A stretch of DNA of 17,475 bases, taken from assembly GCA_000437895.1 (NCBI GenBank), contig FR902159.1, positions 20,487 to 37,961 on the forward strand, given 5' to 3'. Source of the DNA: Clostridium sp. CAG:914 (GTDB taxonomy: Bacteria; Bacillota_I; Bacilli_A; RF39; UBA660). This document shows positions 3,001 to 17,475 of this stretch, in pieces (the first letter of the stretch is position 1; each line of letters opens with the position of its first letter). Position numbers and translations under genes: made by a program. Below the pieces are notes generated by a model. That model was not told where the DNA came from. It ran no database searches and saw only the letters and a list, made by a program, of their open reading frames with translations.

Positions 3001-4227
3001 TTAAAAATTAAACATTATCCACTCAGGTTTAAACATTAAAAGCAGTCCTATAAACAACATAAGAATACCACCAATTAACTTAGATAAATTACCATACTTA
3101 GAAGATACACCAGTTAGTGATAATGTTGTCATAGCAATAACAAATACCACAAAATCATCCAACAAAAAGAATAACATGTATAAAACAATATATATAATCT
3201 CTTCAATAGCCGTCAAATTATTAAGTGACAATATCTCAATAAACATAACAGGTAATCCTGCTGAACAAGCAAGTTCTACAACATTAACACTAATAGCAAG
3301 AACTATAACACCTAAAATAGCTAACCAAAAGTTTTTTTCTGTTGTAAACTTTTTAATTCTAGTAATTATTCTATTTCTTTTCTTATCATCTACAACATCA
3401 CAACCAGAAACTTTTCTATGTTTAATATATCCCCTTAAATTAATAAAACCACCAACAAGAGAAACAACAGCAATAATTACTCTTACCCATACAACAGATA
3501 TTAATAAATTAGCCAAATTTAACCAAGACATCATAAATATTAAATATATTAAAGCCGAAATCAAAAGAAAAGTACTTCCCAATATCCACATTCTCTTTTT
3601 ATCTTTCATACCAATTAACATACTAATCAAAAATAATAATACCCACATAGCACATGGATTAAATCCATCAGCCAAACCAATTACTACTGTTATTAAAGGA
3701 AGTGTTAAATTTTTTAACTTAACTTCCCCAATTAAAGGTAATTTAACTTTATAACTAATATAATTACTAATATATTCATCAACATCTGGATCAGTATCCT
3801 TTACTTCATAACTAGGTAAAGGTATCGAAGAAATATATTCCCCAACCTTATCTTCATAACCATATTTAGAATAATACTCTATAGCTCCTTTAAATCTACC
3901 CTTAGAGTTTTCATAATCATAACCACTAAACACCTTATTACCAATAATTGTATAAGGTGTACCAGTTACTTTACTTCCCATAATTTCTGATATATTCTTT
4001 AATAATTCACCATTCCCATTTTCATTCACTTCATATTTATATACCTTAATATTATCATATTCTTTTTCTAATTCATCTAAAAGTTTAATTTCTTCTTTAC
4101 AATGCTTACAAGTATATGAATGAAACAAATATATATTTACTAAATTCTTTTCAGATACTGCATTTACAACATTACAAAAAGAAAACAAACAAATAACAAG
4201 AAATAATATCTTTAAACTTCTTTTCAT
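3001..4227 (-). CDS. Secreted thioredoxin-fold domain fused to a polytopic membrane domain with conserved cysteines (DsbD/CcdA-like thiol-disulfide membrane protein)
   Basis: 408 aa. Signal peptide MKRSLKILFLVICLFSFCNVVNA, then a thioredoxin/glutaredoxin-like CxxC (LFHSYTCKHCKEE). After that come about six transmembrane helices carrying DGFNPCAMWVL in the first and ELACSAGLP in a later helix. The start overlaps the upstream stop as ATGA at 4224-4227. Confidence 0.6.
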   Translation of the reverse strand: MKRSLKILFLVICLFSFCNVVNAVSEKNLVNIYLFHSYTCKHCKEEIKLLDELEKEYDNIKVYKYEVNENGNGELLKNISEIMGSKVTGTPYTIIGNKVFSGYDYENSKGRFKGAIEYYSKYGYEDKVGEYISSIPLPSYEVKDTDPDVDEYISNYISYKVKLPLIGEVKLKNLTLPLITVVIGLADGFNPCAMWVLLFLISMLIGMKDKKRMWILGSTFLLISALIYLIFMMSWLNLANLLISVVWVRVIIAVVSLVGGFINLRGYIKHRKVSGCDVVDDKKRNRIITRIKKFTTEKNFWLAILGVIVLAISVNVVELACSAGLPVMFIEILSLNNLTAIEEIIYIVLYMLFFLLDDFVVFVIAMTTLSLTGVSSKYGNLSKLIGGILMLFIGLLLMFKPEWIMFNF

Positions 4228-6669: not shown

Positions 6670-7110
6670 ATGAACAATAATTATTATAATATACCTGTAG
6701 ATTGGTATAGTATGGACACTATTAATAGTTATGATAACATAATTAATGATAGATCTGGTAATTTATTAAGTCCAAAGGATGGTTTCTTAAAAGGAAATAT
6801 GTTTAATAACTTATATAGCAAATATAAAAACTATCCAATTAATGACTTAAATATCCAAAATAAAAGAGAAGAATTATTATATAATTATATGATGTATAAC
6901 TTTACTCTAACAGATTTAGGATTATATCTAGATAATTACCCTAATGATGTTAACGTTATTAACTTATATAACAATTACCTAAACGAATACTACAAAATAT
7001 TAAACGAATATGAAAGAAATTATGGACCATTAACAATCGATAGTCATTATCTAAATACAAGCCCTTGGACTTGGGATAATTCACCATGGCCATGGGAGGT
7101 GACTAAATAA
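6670..7110 (+). CDS. cotJB: Spore coat protein CotJB with an N-terminal CotJA-like extension (apparent CotJA-CotJB fusion)
   Basis: The C-terminal half, FTLTDLGLYLDNYPND...YERNYGPLT...SPWTWDNSPWPWEV, matches CotJB. The N-terminal half, LLSPKDGFLKGNMFNNLYSKYKNYP, resembles the CotJA core (sP.EAL.kGTLw..Ly..Y.nP). GGGAGG RBS. The stop overlaps the cotJC ATG. Confidence 0.75.
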   Translation: MNNNYYNIPVDWYSMDTINSYDNIINDRSGNLLSPKDGFLKGNMFNNLYSKYKNYPINDLNIQNKREELLYNYMMYNFTLTDLGLYLDNYPNDVNVINLYNNYLNEYYKILNEYERNYGPLTIDSHYLNTSPWTWDNSPWPWEVTK

Positions 7111-7667
7111 TGTGGAAATATGTTAAAAGTCTAGAATACCCTGTTAATATAAAAAAGAAAGATTTAAAAATGGCTAAATATCTAGTTACACAATATGGTG
7201 GTGCTAACGGAGAACTAGGAGCTGCCTTAAGATACTTAAATCAAAGATATACTATGCCAGATGAAAAAGGAAAAGCTCTACTTACCGATATCGGTACAGA
7301 AGAATTAGCCCATGTAGAAATAATATCAGCTATGGTATACCAATTATTAAAAGGAGCAACAAAAGAAGAATTAGAAAACGCTGGATTAGGTTCACATTAT
7401 ACTGAACATGGTAATGCCCTATATCCAACAGATTCAAATGGTGTTCCCTTTACCGTAGCTTACTTTGCCACAACAGGAGACCCACTCGCTGATTTATCTG
7501 AAGATATGGCTGCTGAAGAAAAAGCAAGAGCCACATATGAACACCTAATTACCCTAACTAATGATAAAGATATTATTGATGTATTGTTATTTTTAAGACA
7601 AAGAGAAATTATTCACTTTCAAAGATTTAAAGAATTATATGATGAATATAAGAAAAAAGGATACTAA
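7110..7667 (+). CDS. cotJC: Spore coat protein CotJC (manganese-catalase family)
   Basis: MWKYVKSLEYPVNIKKKDLKMAKYLVTQYGGANGELGAALRYLNQRYTMP and GTEELAHVEII are near-invariant CotJC and Mn-catalase di-metal ligand blocks. 185 aa. Confidence 0.9.
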   Translation: MWKYVKSLEYPVNIKKKDLKMAKYLVTQYGGANGELGAALRYLNQRYTMPDEKGKALLTDIGTEELAHVEIISAMVYQLLKGATKEELENAGLGSHYTEHGNALYPTDSNGVPFTVAYFATTGDPLADLSEDMAAEEKARATYEHLITLTNDKDIIDVLLFLRQREIIHFQRFKELYDEYKKKGY

Positions 7668-12230: not shown

Positions 12231-13499
12231 TTACTTAGTATATTCAAATTCATAATCTAATATTTTAACAATATCACCTTCCTGAATACCCATCTTCTCA
12301 AGATCATCATCTACCCCCATATTTCTAAGTTTCATAGAAAATCTATTAATAGCCTCCTCAGTATTAAAATTCATCATCTTAAATATCCTTTCTACTTCCT
12401 TACCACTTATAACATAAGTATGACCCTCTTTAGTAATAGAATATGGCTTCTCTTTTTTAAACTTATATAACACATGACTTTCTTGTATATCATCTTCATA
12501 TAAAACATCATCTTCTGTCTCTTCAACCAAAACATTTAATTTATCAATTAACTCTTCTAAATTATCCTTATTAAGAGCAGATATAGAAATAACCTCTTCA
12601 CTAACCTTAGACTTAAATTCTCTCAAATTATCCAAACTACCATCAATATCCATCTTATTAGCAATAATAATTTCCTTCTTATTTAATAATTTCTCACTAA
12701 AACTAGCCAATTCTTTTCTAATAGCCATATAATCTTCATATGGATTTCTTCCCTCACTACCACTCATATCAATAACATGAGCAATTATTTTCGTTCTCTC
12801 AATATGTTTTAAAAATTTATGACCAAGACCAACGCCTAAAGAAGCACCTTCAATAAGCCCAGGCAAATCAGCAATAACAAAACTATTACCCTTGGTAGTA
12901 ACAACTCCCAAATTAGGAGATAAAGTTGTAAAATGATAACTTGCTATCTTAGGATTAGCATTAGTAATCATAGATAATATAGTACTCTTCCCAACACTAG
13001 GCATACCTACCAAACCAACATCAGCCATCATTCTAAGTTCAACTTTAATTTTTCTTACCTCACCAGGTTCACCACGTTCAGCAAAAGAAGGACAAGGATT
13101 ATTTTTCGTAGCCAAACTAACATTACCACGTCCACCACGTCCACCATAAGCAACGATTACTTCTTCACCCGGCTTAGTAAGATCAGCAACAACACTTCCC
13201 GTTTCCAAATCTTTTACCGTCGTACCAACAGGAACCTTAATAATCTTATCAACACTATCCTTACCCGTTTGATTCTTTCCCTCACCATTCTTACCAGCAT
13301 CACCAGTAATCTTCTTTAAATATCTCAAATCAATTAACGTTTTTAAACCCGTATCTGTCTTAAAAATAATATTAGCACCATGTCCACCAGACCCACCATT
13401 AGGCCCCCCCATTGGCACAAACTTCTCTCTCCTATATGCCATACAGCCATCTCCACCACGACCAGCACAAACTTCCATAATAACTTCATCCACGAACAT
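12231..13499 (-). CDS. obg: GTPase Obg/CgtA
   Basis: MFVDEVIMEVCAGRGGDGCMAYRREKFVPMGGPNGGSGGHGANIIF (glycine-rich Obg fold), G1 GMPSVGKST, G3 DLPGLIEGA, G4 NKMD, and a C-terminal OCT/TGS-like domain. Start set at the ATG at 13499. Confidence 0.95.
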   Translation of the reverse strand: MFVDEVIMEVCAGRGGDGCMAYRREKFVPMGGPNGGSGGHGANIIFKTDTGLKTLIDLRYLKKITGDAGKNGEGKNQTGKDSVDKIIKVPVGTTVKDLETGSVVADLTKPGEEVIVAYGGRGGRGNVSLATKNNPCPSFAERGEPGEVRKIKVELRMMADVGLVGMPSVGKSTILSMITNANPKIASYHFTTLSPNLGVVTTKGNSFVIADLPGLIEGASLGVGLGHKFLKHIERTKIIAHVIDMSGSEGRNPYEDYMAIRKELASFSEKLLNKKEIIIANKMDIDGSLDNLREFKSKVSEEVISISALNKDNLEELIDKLNVLVEETEDDVLYEDDIQESHVLYKFKKEKPYSITKEGHTYVISGKEVERIFKMMNFNTEEAINRFSMKLRNMGVDDDLEKMGIQEGDIVKILDYEFEYTK

Positions 13500-13539
13500 A
13501 AATATCACATCCCATAAGTATTATATAACATTTCACATC

Positions 13540-13575
13540 AAAAAAAAAGTATATTCAAACTTAATTACTTATACT
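13540..13575 (-). terminator. Candidate terminator after the RT operon
   Basis: Minus-strand sense: AGTATA (13575-13570), a 16-nt loop, TATACT (13553-13548), then a T9 run (13548-13540). The stem is weak and AT-rich, but the U-tract is strong. Confidence 0.4.
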
Positions 13576-13633
13576 ATACATCATTAATCCCTTTAACAAT
13601 AATTCCAAATACCTATTATTTCTAATTCATCTA

Positions 13634-14671
13634 TTAAAACATAATATTTTCTATTTCTCTATATATCTTCTGATATATATGATAACTATTTGCATGCCTT
13701 ATATGTGAAGACCAACTATTAAAACTAAGCATCATCTTCTTCCTATCCAAACATCCCATATTATTATCTTTTTTCCATTTCTTAATTCTCTTTTTTATTT
13801 TTCTTTTACTACTATTTCTAATAAGTCTATACCCATCATATATCCTATAACCACAAAAATTAACTCCCATCTTTGAAGGATAATATCTACTTTTATTATT
13901 CAATTCTAATTTTAATTCCTTATTTAAAAACATCTTTATCTTTTCCATAACTATCCTACATTTTTCTTTCGTAGAAAGAAGAATTACCATATCATCCATA
14001 TATCTCACATAATACCTAACCTTAAGCACTTCCTTAACATATCTATCTAATATACTTAAATATATATTAGCAAAATATTGTGAAGTATAATTCCCTATCG
14101 GTATTCCCTTATCTATTTCATCATCATATATAAATATTTTAGTTAACCAAAGTATTTTTTTATCACTAACGAAACTATTCATTATCTTATATAATATATT
14201 TTTATCAATATTATAAAAATATTTCTTAATATCTAACTTAAGAACATAATATTTACCATATTTTCTTTTCATAATATTAATATATTTATCTACCATCAAA
14301 ACAGCATAATGAGTCCCCCTATTATCAATGCAAGCACAACAAGTATTAATTATTCTAGGTATAATATAAGGTTTTATAAATTCATAAATATACCATTGTT
14401 GTACTATTCTATCTCTATAAGGTAAACACTTAATAATTCTTTCTTTAGGTTCATATATTGTAAATACTTTATACTTACCAAGTCTATAACTACCATTCTT
14501 TAAACTATTCATAATTCCAACTATATTAGTCTCAATATCAACACTAAATTTAAGTAATTCATACCTATTAGTCTTATTTTTTTTAGCTCTATCATGTGAT
14601 CTAAGTAAAGATTCAAATGTTAACTTTTTATAAAAACAATTCTTTATACTTTTAGACATGACTTTATCCAT
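13634..14671 (-). CDS. DGR-type reverse transcriptase
   Basis: 345 aa, RT domain only, with no maturase, endonuclease or RNase H domain. Motifs: EPKERIIKCLPYRDRIVQQ (RT1/2), VLKLDIKKYFYNID (RT3), GIPIGNYTSQYFANIYL (the IGNxxSQ motif 4 characteristic of DGR RTs), YVRYMDDMVIL (YMDD box, as in Bordetella bRT), FCGYRI, and the C-terminal SWSSHIRHANSY. It overlaps avd by 28 nt. Confidence 0.85.
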   Translation of the reverse strand: MDKVMSKSIKNCFYKKLTFESLLRSHDRAKKNKTNRYELLKFSVDIETNIVGIMNSLKNGSYRLGKYKVFTIYEPKERIIKCLPYRDRIVQQWYIYEFIKPYIIPRIINTCCACIDNRGTHYAVLMVDKYINIMKRKYGKYYVLKLDIKKYFYNIDKNILYKIMNSFVSDKKILWLTKIFIYDDEIDKGIPIGNYTSQYFANIYLSILDRYVKEVLKVRYYVRYMDDMVILLSTKEKCRIVMEKIKMFLNKELKLELNNKSRYYPSKMGVNFCGYRIYDGYRLIRNSSKRKIKKRIKKWKKDNNMGCLDRKKMMLSFNSWSSHIRHANSYHIYQKIYREIENIMF

Positions 14672-15000
14672 CCACCAAGTAAATTCCCTATATTATATAT
14701 CTTCTTACTCCAAGCACTATAATTCTTACTATTAATATATTTCTTTTTATAAGATACCCTAATCATTACTTTTAACATCTTAAGTTCTACATCTATTTCA
14801 TTTAAAATAATTATTCTTTTATTCTTATTAAATTCCTTATTAGCAAGTATTATCTTTCTCATACCATTATAAGTAATTCTTTTTATCTCATCAACCATTG
14901 CTCCCTTTTCACTTTTCGGATACTTTAAAGTAATATTTTCCGTATAATATATCATCCCTAAATATTGTTTATATATCATTAATCCTTCTAACTCATTCAT
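14644..15000 (-). CDS. avd: Accessory variability determinant (Avd)-like four-helix-bundle protein
   Basis: 118 aa, very basic and predicted all-helical. KYPKSEKGAMVDEIKR, ELKMLKVMIRVSYKKKYIN and the C-terminal IGNLLGGWIKS fit the Avd / 'S23-IVS' four-helix-bundle pattern. It sits immediately upstream of the RT and overlaps it. Confidence 0.7.
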   Translation of the reverse strand: MNELEGLMIYKQYLGMIYYTENITLKYPKSEKGAMVDEIKRITYNGMRKIILANKEFNKNKRIIILNEIDVELKMLKVMIRVSYKKKYINSKNYSAWSKKIYNIGNLLGGWIKSCLKV

Positions 15001-15361
15001 TTAATAACTCCTTAAACTTATAAAGTATCTCTATCGCTTTTAACGGACTAATATTATCAATATCTATATCTTTAATCATCTTAATTATTTTATCATTTAT
15101 AACACCTCTATCATTATTATTTATTATCTCAACATCCAACTCTAAATTCTCAAATATTCCCATATATTTATCTATACTATTCTTAGGAAAACCACACTTT
15201 ACTATATTTTCATTTAATTTAGTAATTTTAAATGGTACATACTTACTTATCTTATAAGCATCATCATCGATAAATATATAAAACGTTCCACACTCAAATA
15301 AATAATATTTATTTTTATCAATATTCTTTTTTTCTAAATACTTCATATATAATTTACTCAC
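14993..15361 (-). CDS. MutS domain-I-like mini-protein (DGR accessory, MSL-type)
   Basis: 122 aa. YMKYLEKKNIDKNKYYLFECGTFYIFIDDDAYKISKYVPFKITKLNENIVKCGFPKNSIDKYMGIFENLELDVEI aligns by eye with the MutS N-terminal mismatch-binding domain ([45 protein letters not shown]...PMAGIPYHAVENYLAKLV). The C-terminal ISPLKAIEILYKFKELL resembles the MutS C-terminal TPxEAxxLLyeL helix. There is no ATPase domain. GTG start with GGAGG 6 nt upstream. The stop overlaps the avd ATG (ATGAATGA). Confidence 0.55.
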   Translation of the reverse strand: MSKLYMKYLEKKNIDKNKYYLFECGTFYIFIDDDAYKISKYVPFKITKLNENIVKCGFPKNSIDKYMGIFENLELDVEIINNNDRGVINDKIIKMIKDIDIDNISPLKAIEILYKFKELLNE

Positions 15362-15372
15362 ACTATGCCTCC

Positions 15373-15403
15373 AAAAAATAGCAGCACAAAAAAATTGTAC
15401 TGC
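15373..15403 (-). terminator. Terminator/attenuator-like hairpin immediately upstream of the msl-avd-RT ribosome-binding site
   Basis: Minus-strand sense: GCAGTAC (15403-15397), loop AATTTTTTT, GTGCTGC (15387-15381; 7 bp including one G-U pair), then TATTTTTT (15380-15373), which runs straight into GGAGG (15372-15368). Confidence 0.4.
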
Positions 15404-15523
15404 AAAAACTAATTTTGATAAACTCTCATTTTCACCATTTTACTACTCACGCGAATCTATCATTTTTTATGTGTATGTTCATCAACCATGAAAAGGAATA
15501 ATTTCTCTACGATAAAAACTAAT

Positions 15524-15543
15524 ATAATGTCCTTAAACATTAT
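15524..15543 (-). other. Small hairpin about 25 nt downstream of the target-gene stop and candidate VR
   Basis: ATAATGT / ACATTAT 7-bp inverted repeat with a 6-nt loop. On the minus strand it is followed by ATTAGTTTTTAT. It could be a weak terminator or a DGR-associated VR-flanking hairpin. Confidence 0.3.
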
Positions 15544-15567
15544 CCCCTAGCATAATATAATTATCTA

Positions 15568-17475
15568 TTATTGTAGTCTACCAACGACCAAAACCGAGCG
15601 GGCGGCACTATTGATGTTGGCACTACCGTTGTAGATGTCGAAGCTAAACGTGCCCGCACTAGAATCAGTGTTGTAGCCGCCGCCACGCAAGAACCACGGA
15701 TTACCAGCATAGACAAAGCTGGCACTATCATCATACCAATCACTTACTTCGGATAATCCATGTCCATAACATATCCCATCATTACACGCCGTTAGTGAAT
15801 TAGTTGCCGTATAATCATCATAATATTTACTATTAGGTTGGCTTGAGAAACCCGCATAATTACTTAATGAAGTTGCTCCCCACGTACTACCAGCTGGACT
15901 ATAATATCCCATAACATATTCCCAAGCACCACCAGACATATCATACACTCCAGTAATATTGCCTGTCGTACTAGATACTTTACTTATATCATGTGTACTA
16001 CTCTTCGTATTGGTATTATATTCTAGTAAATATCCATCCCAAGTATAAAAGCCATAATAAGTATTATATTGTGAGGTAGATGTTTGACTGGTATATACCG
16101 TATTAATTGCGGTACTTCCACCGACATTTCCGCCACTTCTTCCCGTATAATATCCAGATGAATTATTAATGTATATTTCTCGATTTGCTCCATATCTACT
16201 ATGAGATAAATATGCTACTGCTCCCCATTCACTATTCTTCATCATATGTGCATCGACATTACTAGTCATTCCGTATGTACTTGTCCCAAATCTTTGAGCA
16301 GTTGTAAATTCTGCTGATACTGTTTGGTTTCTAAGAGAACTGATATTGGGCATTATTAATGGAGCCGTAGCCGTTCCACCAGTTTCAAACTTTCCTACCC
16401 AAATACCATTTACTTCGGTATTACCAAATGTAAAGGCTGGATGAGTATAATAAGTATTAACTGCATCTCCCAAAGTTTTAGTTGTTGATTTATCTTCATA
16501 TATAATATCAATTTCTCTTGGACCTGTATAATTATATGAAGAAGAAATTTCCATCGTATATGTTATCTGATTATCTGAATTATTTTGATTATACATGTCA
16601 ATAAGTTGAGAAGTAGTCACTTCAATTCCAAGACTAGCATTTGAAAAAGTACCTGTTTGAAGGGCATTATTTACATCTGTCGTTGCTTCTTCCAATGTAT
16701 AACTAGTAAATCCAGCACTCTGGGCATAAGCATGCACCCAATTAATAAGTAATGTCTTATCACTATCACTTAATACATATATGTCAATAAGTTGAGAAGT
16801 AGACATTTCAATTCCAAGACTAGCATTTGAAAAAATACCTTTCTGAAGAGCATTATTTACATCTGTCGTTGCTTCTTCTAATGTATATGGACCTGAAACA
16901 AATCCTTGATTAATAGCATCTTGCACATAACTATACCACCAATTAATAAGTAATGTCTTATCACTATCACTTAATACATATACATAACATTCAGGATTTT
17001 CCTCATATGTTGGATTAGTTAATGTACTACATTTAACTTCTGGTATTCGGTATTTATACCTAGGTATCCATACATAATAAGCCAATATATCTTCTTCTGA
17101 TACTACAACTCCAGAAGTATTCTGATAAGTACTTCTAGAACTATCATTTACTAAAACCATATTAGCCCATTCCTTATTATTATAATTATACCAAGAAGCA
17201 TCATCTTCAGATACTGTTGAAGTTATTCCATTACTAGATATTACTACTGGTATCATTCCATCTTTAATATCTGGTTTACTTGCTGGAACATCATTCATAC
17301 AACTACCATTTAATGATAAACTAAATGACTGATTCATGGTTTCACTACTTGTCTCTTCAGCATCTAACCATATCCATAAATAATATGTCTCCGTAGCTGT
17401 CGCTGTATATTCTTTTGAAGTGAGTAAATTAACTTTATCACCAGTTATCTTTCCATTAAAATTACCAGAGCTTAC
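15568..17475 (-). CDS. DGR target (variable) protein with a C-terminal FGE-sulfatase / C-type-lectin-like domain; the 5' end runs off the right window edge
   Basis: The frame stays open for all 46 codons upstream of the track's ATG (17337) to the window end (VSSGNFNGKITGDKVNLL...), so the protein is longer than 635 aa. The C-terminal roughly 320 aa carry GIWVGKFE, MMKNSEWGAVAYL, GVYDMSGGAWEYV and WFLRGGGYN....ARSVLV. These correspond to the FGE-sulfatase-type fold used by many DGR variable proteins (DMxGNvWEW ... RGGSW ... GFR). Confidence 0.8.
   Translation of the reverse strand, partial: VSSGNFNGKITGDKVNLLTSKEYTATATETYYLWIWLDAEETSSETMNQSFSLSLNGSCMNDVPASKPDIKDGMIPVVISSNGITSTVSEDDASWYNYNNKEWANMVLVNDSSRSTYQNTSGVVVSEEDILAYYVWIPRYKYRIPEVKCSTLTNPTYEENPECYVYVLSDSDKTLLINWWYSYVQDAINQGFVSGPYTLEEATTDVNNALQKGIFSNASLGIEMSTSQLIDIYVLSDSDKTLLINWVHAYAQSAGFTSYTLEEATTDVNNALQTGTFSNASLGIEVTTSQLIDMYNQNNSDNQITYTMEISSSYNYTGPREIDIIYEDKSTTKTLGDAVNTYYTHPAFTFGNTEVNGIWVGKFETGGTATAPLIMPNISSLRNQTVSAEFTTAQRFGTSTYGMTSNVDAHMMKNSEWGAVAYLSHSRYGANREIYINNSSGYYTGRSGGNVGGSTAINTVYTSQTSTSQYNTYYGFYTWDGYLLEYNTNTKSSTHDISKVSSTTGNITGVYDMSGGAWEYVMGYYSPAGSTWGATSLSNYAGFSSQPNSKYYDDYTATNSLTACNDGICYGHGLSEVSDWYDDSASFVYAGNPWFLRGGGYNTDSSAGTFSFDIYNGSANINSAARSVLVVGRLQ
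15580..15744 (-). repeat. Candidate DGR variable repeat (VR) with a 3' GC-rich IMH-like block
   Basis: The last 55 sense codons before ...GRLQ* contain no codon ending in A. Sense-strand A is 30/165 and G+C is 85/165 by hand count, in a window that is otherwise about 30% G+C. The segment is rich in AAC/AAT/TAC/AGT/GAT-type codons (YNTDSS, FSFDIYNGSANINS). GCCGCCCGCTCGG (15606-15594) lies at the 3' end. No partner TR was seen in the window, so the repeat status is inferred rather than observed. Confidence 0.6.
16595..16981 (-). repeat. In-frame tandem duplication (186 bp + 201 bp) inside the target gene
   Basis: 16595-16780 and 16781-16981 share near-identical flanks (ATGTCAATAAGTTGAGAAGTAG... 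and ...ATTAATAAGTAATGTCTTATCACTATCACTTAATACATAT) around a divergent centre. The encoded units are YVLSDSDKTLLINW...TLEEATTDVNNALQ.G.FSNASLGIE..TSQLID. Confidence 0.9.

Follow-up and report, generated by a model that had tools for sequence, protein, structure and literature searches.

Diversity-generating retroelements (DGRs) are defined by a pair of related sequences, the template repeat (TR) and the variable repeat (VR). DGRs that contain a small MutS-like (MSL) gene have been described as 'Architecture D', with a Legionella DGR as one example, and this accessory gene has been found solely in DGRs that also contain avd (Wu et al. 2018, PMC5758913). In the DGR of BPP-1, homing is abolished when the TR is deleted and severely reduced when the inverted repeat that follows the VR is removed (PMC12875486; PMC3240598). 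Here we analysed a 17,475-nucleotide stretch of the Clostridium sp. CAG:914 genome (assembly GCA_000437895.1, contig FR902159.1, positions 20,487 to 37,961 of the forward strand), referred to as the window herein, whose right end carries a reverse transcriptase (RT) gene, avd, an MSL gene and a candidate target gene. Our data suggest that this locus is probably a chromosomal MSL-avd-RT DGR that is carried as a disabled allele, in which the VR has been fused to the sequence that normally follows the TR.

The locus resembles Architecture D in that a small MutS-like gene, avd and a DGR-type RT gene lie on one strand together with a target of the C-type lectin/formylglycine-generating enzyme (CLec/FGE) type that has a C-terminal VR. 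Unlike Architecture D, the window has no separate TR, this having apparently been deleted by a VR/TR fusion. Similarities to BPP-1, in which the order is mtd-avd-TR-brt, include an Avd partner and homology of the RT over its full length to the PDB chain 8ub7_A, which, on its sequence motifs, we take to be bRT, the RT of the Bordetella phage. Intact conspecific loci further share with BPP-1 adenine-specific mutagenesis and an invariant GC-rich 3′ repeat end that is followed by a post-VR hairpin. The locus differs from BPP-1 in being chromosomal rather than phage-borne, in having the extra MSL gene, in having its TR upstream of the accessory genes, with a long conserved RNA and a terminator after it, and, in the case of the window allele, in lacking both the TR and the hairpin. 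As in the variable proteins TaqVP (5vf4), TvpA and Mtd, the VR lies at the extreme C-terminus of the target, within a region predicted to adopt a similar fold, although sequence identity is 15–16% and the match of the window protein comes from a moderate-confidence model. Unlike these proteins, the target has a long N-terminal region, tandem repeats of 62–67 residues and a membrane anchor.

Unfused DGR loci in related and conspecific genomes

A search of 185,579 species representatives identified five contigs from uncultured Bacilli (L001–L005) that encode RTs 52–64% identical to that of the window. Protein searches and exact look-ups recovered a further 19 conspecific contigs, which are 98–100% identical to the window in flanking housekeeping DNA and less so in the target gene. 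The normal order, seen in the unfused loci, is the target gene with its VR, a hairpin, a spacer of ~175–190 bp, the TR, a conserved non-coding RNA of ~200 nt, and then MSL, avd and RT. In L001–L004 specifically, ~190 bp of spacer lies between the VR, with which the target gene ends, and a TR of 133–145 nt, which is followed by ~220 bp of conserved non-coding DNA, MSL, avd and RT. The TR and VR in these four contigs are 85–88% identical, and all mismatches within the repeat fall at TR adenines.

The VR and TR were found to be separate in 12 conspecific loci (L081, L084–L089 and L092–L096), of which L095 contributes only a VR at the edge of its contig. Where both starts could be read, the start-to-start spacing from VR to TR is 315–326 bp. 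Mismatches between the repeats are adenine-specific in these loci as well, with each VR differing from its own TR at ~19–22 adenine sites and with VR sequences that vary by locus, which shows that the DGR of this species has been active in the past. The hairpin GTGATGC-GAA-GCATCAC, whose 5′ arm is GGGATGC in L085 and L086, lies directly 3′ of the VR, and the hairpin and spacer together read TCTTAGTGATGCGAAGCATCAC...GGGATAATTTCGT. The TR is followed by AGACTACAATAATAG, and the exact stretch shared by VR and TR is 22–32 nt long. The VR-to-TR spacer of all unfused conspecific loci (L085:715–890) also contains a perfect 13-bp inverted repeat, GTGCCTGTTTTGC-(10 nt)-GCAAAACAGGCAC, which may be the terminator of the target gene; as this element is deleted in the window, the target transcript should there run into what was formerly the RNA downstream of the TR.

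The window contains a single repeat copy fused to the TR flank

No second repeat copy was found in the window by a direct-repeat search with the GC-rich 3′ end of the target (seed 6), and a blastn search of the whole masked window with the target 3′ end (word size 7) likewise gave no second copy and nothing better than E = 0.8. The window therefore holds one copy, in place of the TR/VR pair that is found in L001–L004 and in the 12 conspecific loci. The body of this sole copy (15580–15726, minus strand) is of the VR type, is flanked on its 5′ side by target coding sequence, and makes up the last ~49 codons of the target. When compared with the TR of the species, as represented by L085, it shows 15 differences, 14 of which are at TR adenines and one at a site that is polymorphic among TRs. 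The VR-specific substitutions reach to 27–34 nt from the 3′ end of the repeat, and TR flank is found thereafter.

This TR-type 3′ flank, AGACTACAATAATAG (15565–15579, minus strand), was recognized by alignment with the TR and VR flanks of L001–L004, L081 and the 12 conspecific loci. The VR/TR fusion junction is thus at 15580|15579, where the VR body runs into AGACTACAAT. Relative to intact conspecifics, ~321 bp are absent from the window, corresponding to the VR hairpin, the spacer and the entire TR body. With regard to target-site signals, the GC-rich 3′ end of the repeat, which resembles an initiation of mutagenic homing (IMH) element, is present, and the VR-proximal hairpin is deleted, with the TR flank in its place; the combination of such a 3′ end with a hairpin downstream of the VR is thus missing. 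In the window, AGACTACAATAATAG supplies the stop codon of the target and its final residues, RLQ; the protein consequently ends in ...ARSVLVVGRLQ, whereas comparison with the C-termini of database homologues showed that unfused alleles end in ...VVGS. Because a separate TR and the VR-adjacent target-site signals are both lacking, the cassette as assembled is classed as a disabled allele of the known MSL-type DGR and not as a working DGR.

Two other derivations of the window copy were rejected. A crossover in the middle of the repeat, which would give a VR/TR hybrid, does not fit, as the copy, set against the TR of its own species, keeps its VR character until close to the 3′ end. The TR of L081 is not a suitable parent either, as it shows many non-adenine differences from the window copy; the matching TR type occurs in L084–L089 and L094.

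The same junction was found outside the window. It occurs together with the same VR in L082 and L090, whose contigs bear names of the form k141_*, and in the Logan contig L083 (ERR11566244). It also occurs in L099, a Logan contig from another run (SRR31228192), joined to a different VR, which differs from the TR at 21 adenine sites and at one other site; the L099 fusion is an independent event. Two assembly pipelines have thus yielded the junction in four public contigs besides the window. The Logan contigs, which are based on k = 31, pass through it unbranched. Exact sequence sharing between VR and TR amounts to ~30 bases at most, which falls well short of k = 141 and is borderline for k = 31, and the Logan contigs L086, L088 and L089 correctly assemble a separate VR and TR. 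None of the 12 unfused loci with a VR read showed the VR of the window. Two contigs from the metagenome scan that are rearranged or disrupted by an insertion sequence (IS), L091 and L095, were excluded from this argument. Given this recurrence, which includes a contig with a different VR, the VR/TR fusion is probably a real and recurrent deletion, and we infer that in the window, too, it is biological rather than an assembly error.

The fused copies of the window, L090, L082 and L083 differ from one another at 0–2 positions in 150 nt, and the background divergence upstream of them is 3–5 differences in 470 nt. Differences between strains at adenine-templated sites, as in a VR undergoing diversification, were thus not found for the fused copy. 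As the TR and the hairpin are gone and the fused copies match background divergence, we infer, by analogy with BPP-1, that activity has been lost and that the target would now be frozen. The first-pass annotation of the window had proposed that this element gives the organism targeted protein hypervariation, a claim that this sequence does not support, given the absence of the TR body and VR hairpin and the near-invariance of the fused copy.

These observations are consistent with the following model. In the intact form, the TR and its ~200-nt structured 3′ extension would be transcribed, and RT-Avd would reverse-transcribe this RNA into cDNA with errors opposite adenines. This cDNA would then be exchanged for the VR with which the surface-protein gene ends, a step guided by the hairpin just downstream of the VR and by the invariant, GC-rich 3′ terminus of the repeat. 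A deletion of ~321 bp between the direct repeats VR and TR, with the crossover in their identical 27–34-nt 3′ ends, would take out the entire adenine-rich body of the TR along with the spacer and the VR hairpin, and leave one VR copy joined to the downstream RNA region of the TR. With the separate, protected template and the target-site hairpin gone, mutagenic homing should have stopped, and the variable protein would be locked in one variant with the C-terminus ...GRLQ instead of ...GS. The MSL, avd and RT genes of the window are probably relics, or come from an L096-like donor.

The RT, Avd, MSL and target genes

The RT gene (13634–14671, minus strand) has an intact reading frame of 345 aa; translation likely starts at the ATG at 14659, which would give a protein of 341 aa. 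Its translation carries GIPIGNYTSQYFANIYL and a YMDD box, the features from which it had initially been read as a DGR-type RT, and it matches Pfam RVT_1 (E = 6.8e-18). In a search of the PDB, the RT aligned end to end with 8ub7_A, a 328-aa chain titled 'Reverse transcriptase' (E = 2e-47), in an alignment that spans the GIPIG..TSQ.FAN (IGxxxSQ) and YMDD boxes. The next RT family in this search followed at 7e-12 and group II intron RTs at ~1e-11, and overall the group II intron, retron and Drt3a RTs in the PDB matched the window RT at 1e-9 to 1e-12 only. No paper was found in a literature search on structure 8UB7. The window RT is 98% identical to P0001, and RT homologues with 54–98% identity occur in loci that have adenine-specific TR/VR pairs. 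The match to 8ub7_A, the IGxxxSQ and YMDD motifs and the TR/VR pairs in the loci of homologues all argue for placement of this RT in the DGR clade. The first reading of this gene is confirmed, and neither an RT outside the DGR clade nor a lack of Avd, the findings that would have spoken against it, was encountered.

That the RT is instead a defence enzyme of the retron, Abi or UG/DRT kind, or the RT of a group II intron, is extremely improbable. Weak matches to group II, retron and Drt models were obtained from NCBIfam and PADLOC, but these were generic RT matches, each of them far under the curated cut-off of its model, and the combination of a defence family model with partner genes or a non-coding RNA was not found; PADLOC returned no match for Avd or MSL. 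A defence identity was therefore rejected. It is also opposed by the full-length match to 8ub7_A, which far exceeds that to any other type of RT of solved structure, by the avd and MSL genes that adjoin the RT gene, and by the adenine-specific TR/VR pairs in homologous loci.

The avd gene (14644–15000, minus strand; 118 aa, frame intact) matches Pfam bAvd above the curated cut-off (E = 9.7e-21), in accordance with its initial description as Avd-like. Its score against NCBIfam DivGenRetAVD is 72.7 bits, for which the cut-off is 80, and a PDB sequence search with Avd returned nothing meaningful. On the Pfam match, the locus includes the Avd component of a DGR. The MSL gene (14993–15361, minus strand) encodes 122 aa with a MutS_I domain, i.e. 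MutS domain I (Pfam E = 5.8e-9), and is likewise present in L001–L005. It overlaps avd, and the window thus has the small MutS-like gene beside avd that characterizes MSL-type, Architecture D DGRs. The target, MSL, avd and RT genes are all on the minus strand, and reading frames overlap at 14993–15000 (MSL/avd) and at 14644–14671 (avd/RT). These overlaps, from which one translationally coupled operon had been proposed, are as first described, but the target lies outside the overlapping operon, being separated from MSL by ~200 nt of non-coding DNA and a terminator-like hairpin.

The window contains the 3′ 636 codons of the target gene (15568–17475, minus strand), whose reading frame is open at the window end. 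The full homologue in the conspecific L082 is about 704 aa long and has an N-terminal membrane anchor. The C-terminal ~330 aa of the target constitute an FGE-sulfatase/C-type-lectin-like domain, the match of which to Pfam FGE-sulfatase is below the cut-off (E = 1.8e-4); this domain also has a weak sequence match to 5vf4. A structural model of the C-terminal domain, obtained with moderate confidence (pLDDT 62, pTM 0.69), had the DGR variable protein TaqVP (5vf4) as its best fold match (E = 3e-7), followed by Mtd variants and formylglycine-generating enzymes. Homologues of the target carry PF03781 or PF07963, and many have a prepilin-type N-terminal domain. The VR-type copy thus lies at the 3′ end of a gene whose product is predicted, on fold evidence of moderate strength, to be CLec/FGE-like; the weak Pfam match and the model are in line with the FGE-sulfatase/C-type-lectin-like C-terminus first suggested for this protein.

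The target also contains tandem in-frame repeats of 62–67 codons (YVLSDSDKTLLINW...TSQLID; window positions 16591–16982, minus strand), with two copies in the window and one in L082. It is far more polymorphic between strains (87–99% identity) than the flanking housekeeping genes (99–100%).

Given the DGR-clade RT, Avd, MSL, the CLec/FGE-type target and the adenine-specific TR/VR pairs of its relatives, the locus is DGR-derived beyond reasonable doubt.

A conserved non-coding region lies between the repeat and MSL

The region at 15381–15579 (minus strand) aligns with L001–L004 and corresponds to the conserved non-coding stretch that separates MSL from the TR in intact relatives. It is presumed to be the spacer-like part of the DGR template RNA. 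The 200 nt from the repeat to MSL in the window can be matched to the TR-to-MSL regions of L001–L004 (L001:2178–2400, L002:9083–9300, L003:9063–9290 and L004:636–873) by a series of conserved blocks, among them GACTACAATA, ATAATGTT-TAAGG-ACATTAT, GTGAGTAGTAAAATGGTGAAAATGAGA and a terminator-like hairpin. RNAalifold predicted 28 base pairs for this region, 12 of them with compensatory changes, from five sequences only. The hairpin ATAATGTT-TAAGG-ACATTAT (15524–15543, minus strand) has an 8-bp stem that is kept in four of the five sequences, L004 forming three of the eight pairs, and it shows one G-C to A-U compensatory change. The terminator-like hairpin GCAGTACAATTTTTTTGTGCTGC with its T run (15381–15403, minus strand) is located just upstream of the MSL ribosome-binding site, and the element is also present in L085. 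A search of positions 13400–17475 against Rfam at E ≤ 1 gave no match, including none to a retron RNA. This ~200-nt RNA region may be the counterpart, in MSL-type DGRs, of the Bordetella spacer RNA.

Sister strains carry further lesions and a probable recombinant allele

Only L081, L093 and L096 appear fully intact among the conspecific loci. A 17-bp RT deletion is found in L084–L086, L097 and L098, and an 11-bp RT deletion next to the YMDD box is combined with a 1-bp avd deletion in L087–L090. In-frame deletions of 39 bp in avd and 57 bp in RT are carried by L082 and L083, with L092 sharing the avd deletion; L094 has a 1-bp RT deletion, and L095 has an IS element in MSL. The VR/TR fusion is found in addition to these, as two independent events, one in the window, L082, L083 and L090 and the other in L099. 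Projected onto the window, the lesions of L084–L090, L094, L097 and L098 fall at 14011, 14161, 14237, 14248, 14715 and 14745. The RT and avd lesions comprise at least four independent sets, several of them between short direct repeats such as TAT...TAT. Since the database clusters of the truncated RTs hold 27–164 member sequences, the lesions are not sequencing errors. The DGR of this species is thus decaying along several independent routes.

One unfused locus, L092, has an unusual TR. Its separate TR (L092:2255–2400; ERZ1023848 NODE-2025, with the TR junction on the plus strand) is adenine-depleted, with 12 A sites substituted, and is nearly identical to the VR of the window, and the VR of L092 itself derives from the canonical TR. 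As L092 combines a VR-like TR body with the 39-bp avd deletion and the near-identical downstream 1 kb of the fused L082 and L083, from which it differs at six positions in that 1 kb, it probably arose by recombination between fused and unfused alleles, one crossover having taken place within the repeat. The presence of VR-derived, adenine-depleted sequence in the TR position would mean that information may flow from VR back to TR. Considering the fused alleles, there are two fusions with different VRs in the species, one of them on three RT/avd haplotypes, so that the locked allele may have spread by recombination.

Two of the contigs have additional features. In L095, the IS within MSL encodes a 409-aa transposase (L095:1002–2231, minus strand), after which come a gene for a 705-aa target-like paralogue without a C-terminal match to the TR and then a further paralogue. 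In L091 (3400–4141, oriented), the 3′ end of a TR and its flank are preceded by AAC-rich tandem units and unrelated sequence of higher GC content; this contig represents either a rearranged TR or a chimera.

Alternative explanations for the fused locus

Several observations weigh against the window being a disabled allele. To the right of the junction the window is 99.8–100% identical to L096, which has a normal, separate TR, and its RT-to-MSL DNA is 100% identical to L096 over 15400–13480, whereas on the left side it is closer to the L082 group (97–99%) than to L096 (87–93%). This mosaic could equally fit natural recombination or a chimeric join, at the repeat, of two co-occurring strains; the same fused allele is also found on L087-like and L092-like right-hand haplotypes. 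The RT, avd and MSL genes are intact, which is not guaranteed in a long-dead element. It is also conceivable that an L092-like TR and a near-identical VR occur in one strain, a configuration that would be harder to assemble, and the loss of activity is argued from the Bordetella phage model. The locus could accordingly be a complete, active DGR whose single copy is an assembly artefact, produced by collapse of VR and TR or by a mis-join of strains at the repeat. Such an artefact would explain why the window changes haplotype precisely at the repeat; the region does seem hard to assemble, given that L081, L084–L086, L088 and L089 all start within ~600 nt upstream of the VR, and an adenine-depleted TR resembling the window copy does exist in L092. 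We nevertheless consider an artefact, the main rival reading for this window, unlikely, as the junction recurs in the four contigs described above, unbranched k = 31 Logan contigs among them, as exact VR/TR identity is far below k = 141, and as the window VR is never followed by the hairpin and spacer in the 12 unfused loci with a VR read.

If the fusion is real, the element could still be active, with the single repeat serving as both template and target, which would lead to progressive adenine loss, or serving as the TR for a remote VR. The intact RT, avd and MSL genes, downstream RNA region and terminator would fit such activity, as would the ~27 adenines retained in the window copy and the finding that, of the five differences that separate this copy from the L092 TR, four coincide with adenines of the canonical TR. 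Against this stand the fused copies themselves, whose 0–2 differences are in keeping with background divergence, the deletion of the target-site hairpin, and the lack of any second VR-like match within the 17.5-kb window. Continued activity is thus very improbable, and we favour a disabled allele that arose by deletion between VR and TR.

Genomic context

The DGR is chromosomal and inserted between the SHMT and obg genes of a low-GC, Bacilli-like host, and all 16 conspecific contigs that extend past the cassette have it at this same site. The remainder of the window encodes housekeeping functions, namely VanZ, XseA, NusB, a class-V aminotransferase, TrmB, CotJB/CotJC, PNPase, S15, PgsA, DivIVA and Obg. 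The cotJB gene and the Mn-catalase-like cotJC (6670–7667, plus strand) are the sole plus-strand genes among those examined and are located at a local flip in GC skew; their presence suggests that the host forms endospores. A 408-aa open reading frame amid the housekeeping genes (3001–4227, minus strand) matched no Pfam family at E ≤ 0.001.

Implications for DGR loss

In the literature that we searched, we found neither loss of a DGR through VR/TR fusion nor DGR decay described, which is absence of evidence only. Our findings leave the understanding of the DGR mechanism unchanged. They do illustrate that a gene set of RT, Avd and target does not prove a working DGR: pipelines that consider proteins only would wrongly score this strain as hypervariable, and the locus would go entirely unnoticed by pipelines in which a TR/VR pair is required. 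VR/TR recombination might, as a tentative suggestion that we hold to be rather doubtful, be a recurrent natural switch that turns a DGR off and locks one variant of its target. If this were true, the species, with at least five other lesion types at the site, would be a natural case study of DGR loss. A single chromosomal site shows intact, frameshifted, IS-disrupted, TR-eroded and TR-deleted forms, and so provides a population view of DGR decay that bears on how long a gut bacterium benefits from a DGR, and on the question of whether destruction of the template is a means for hosts to fix a favourable variant.

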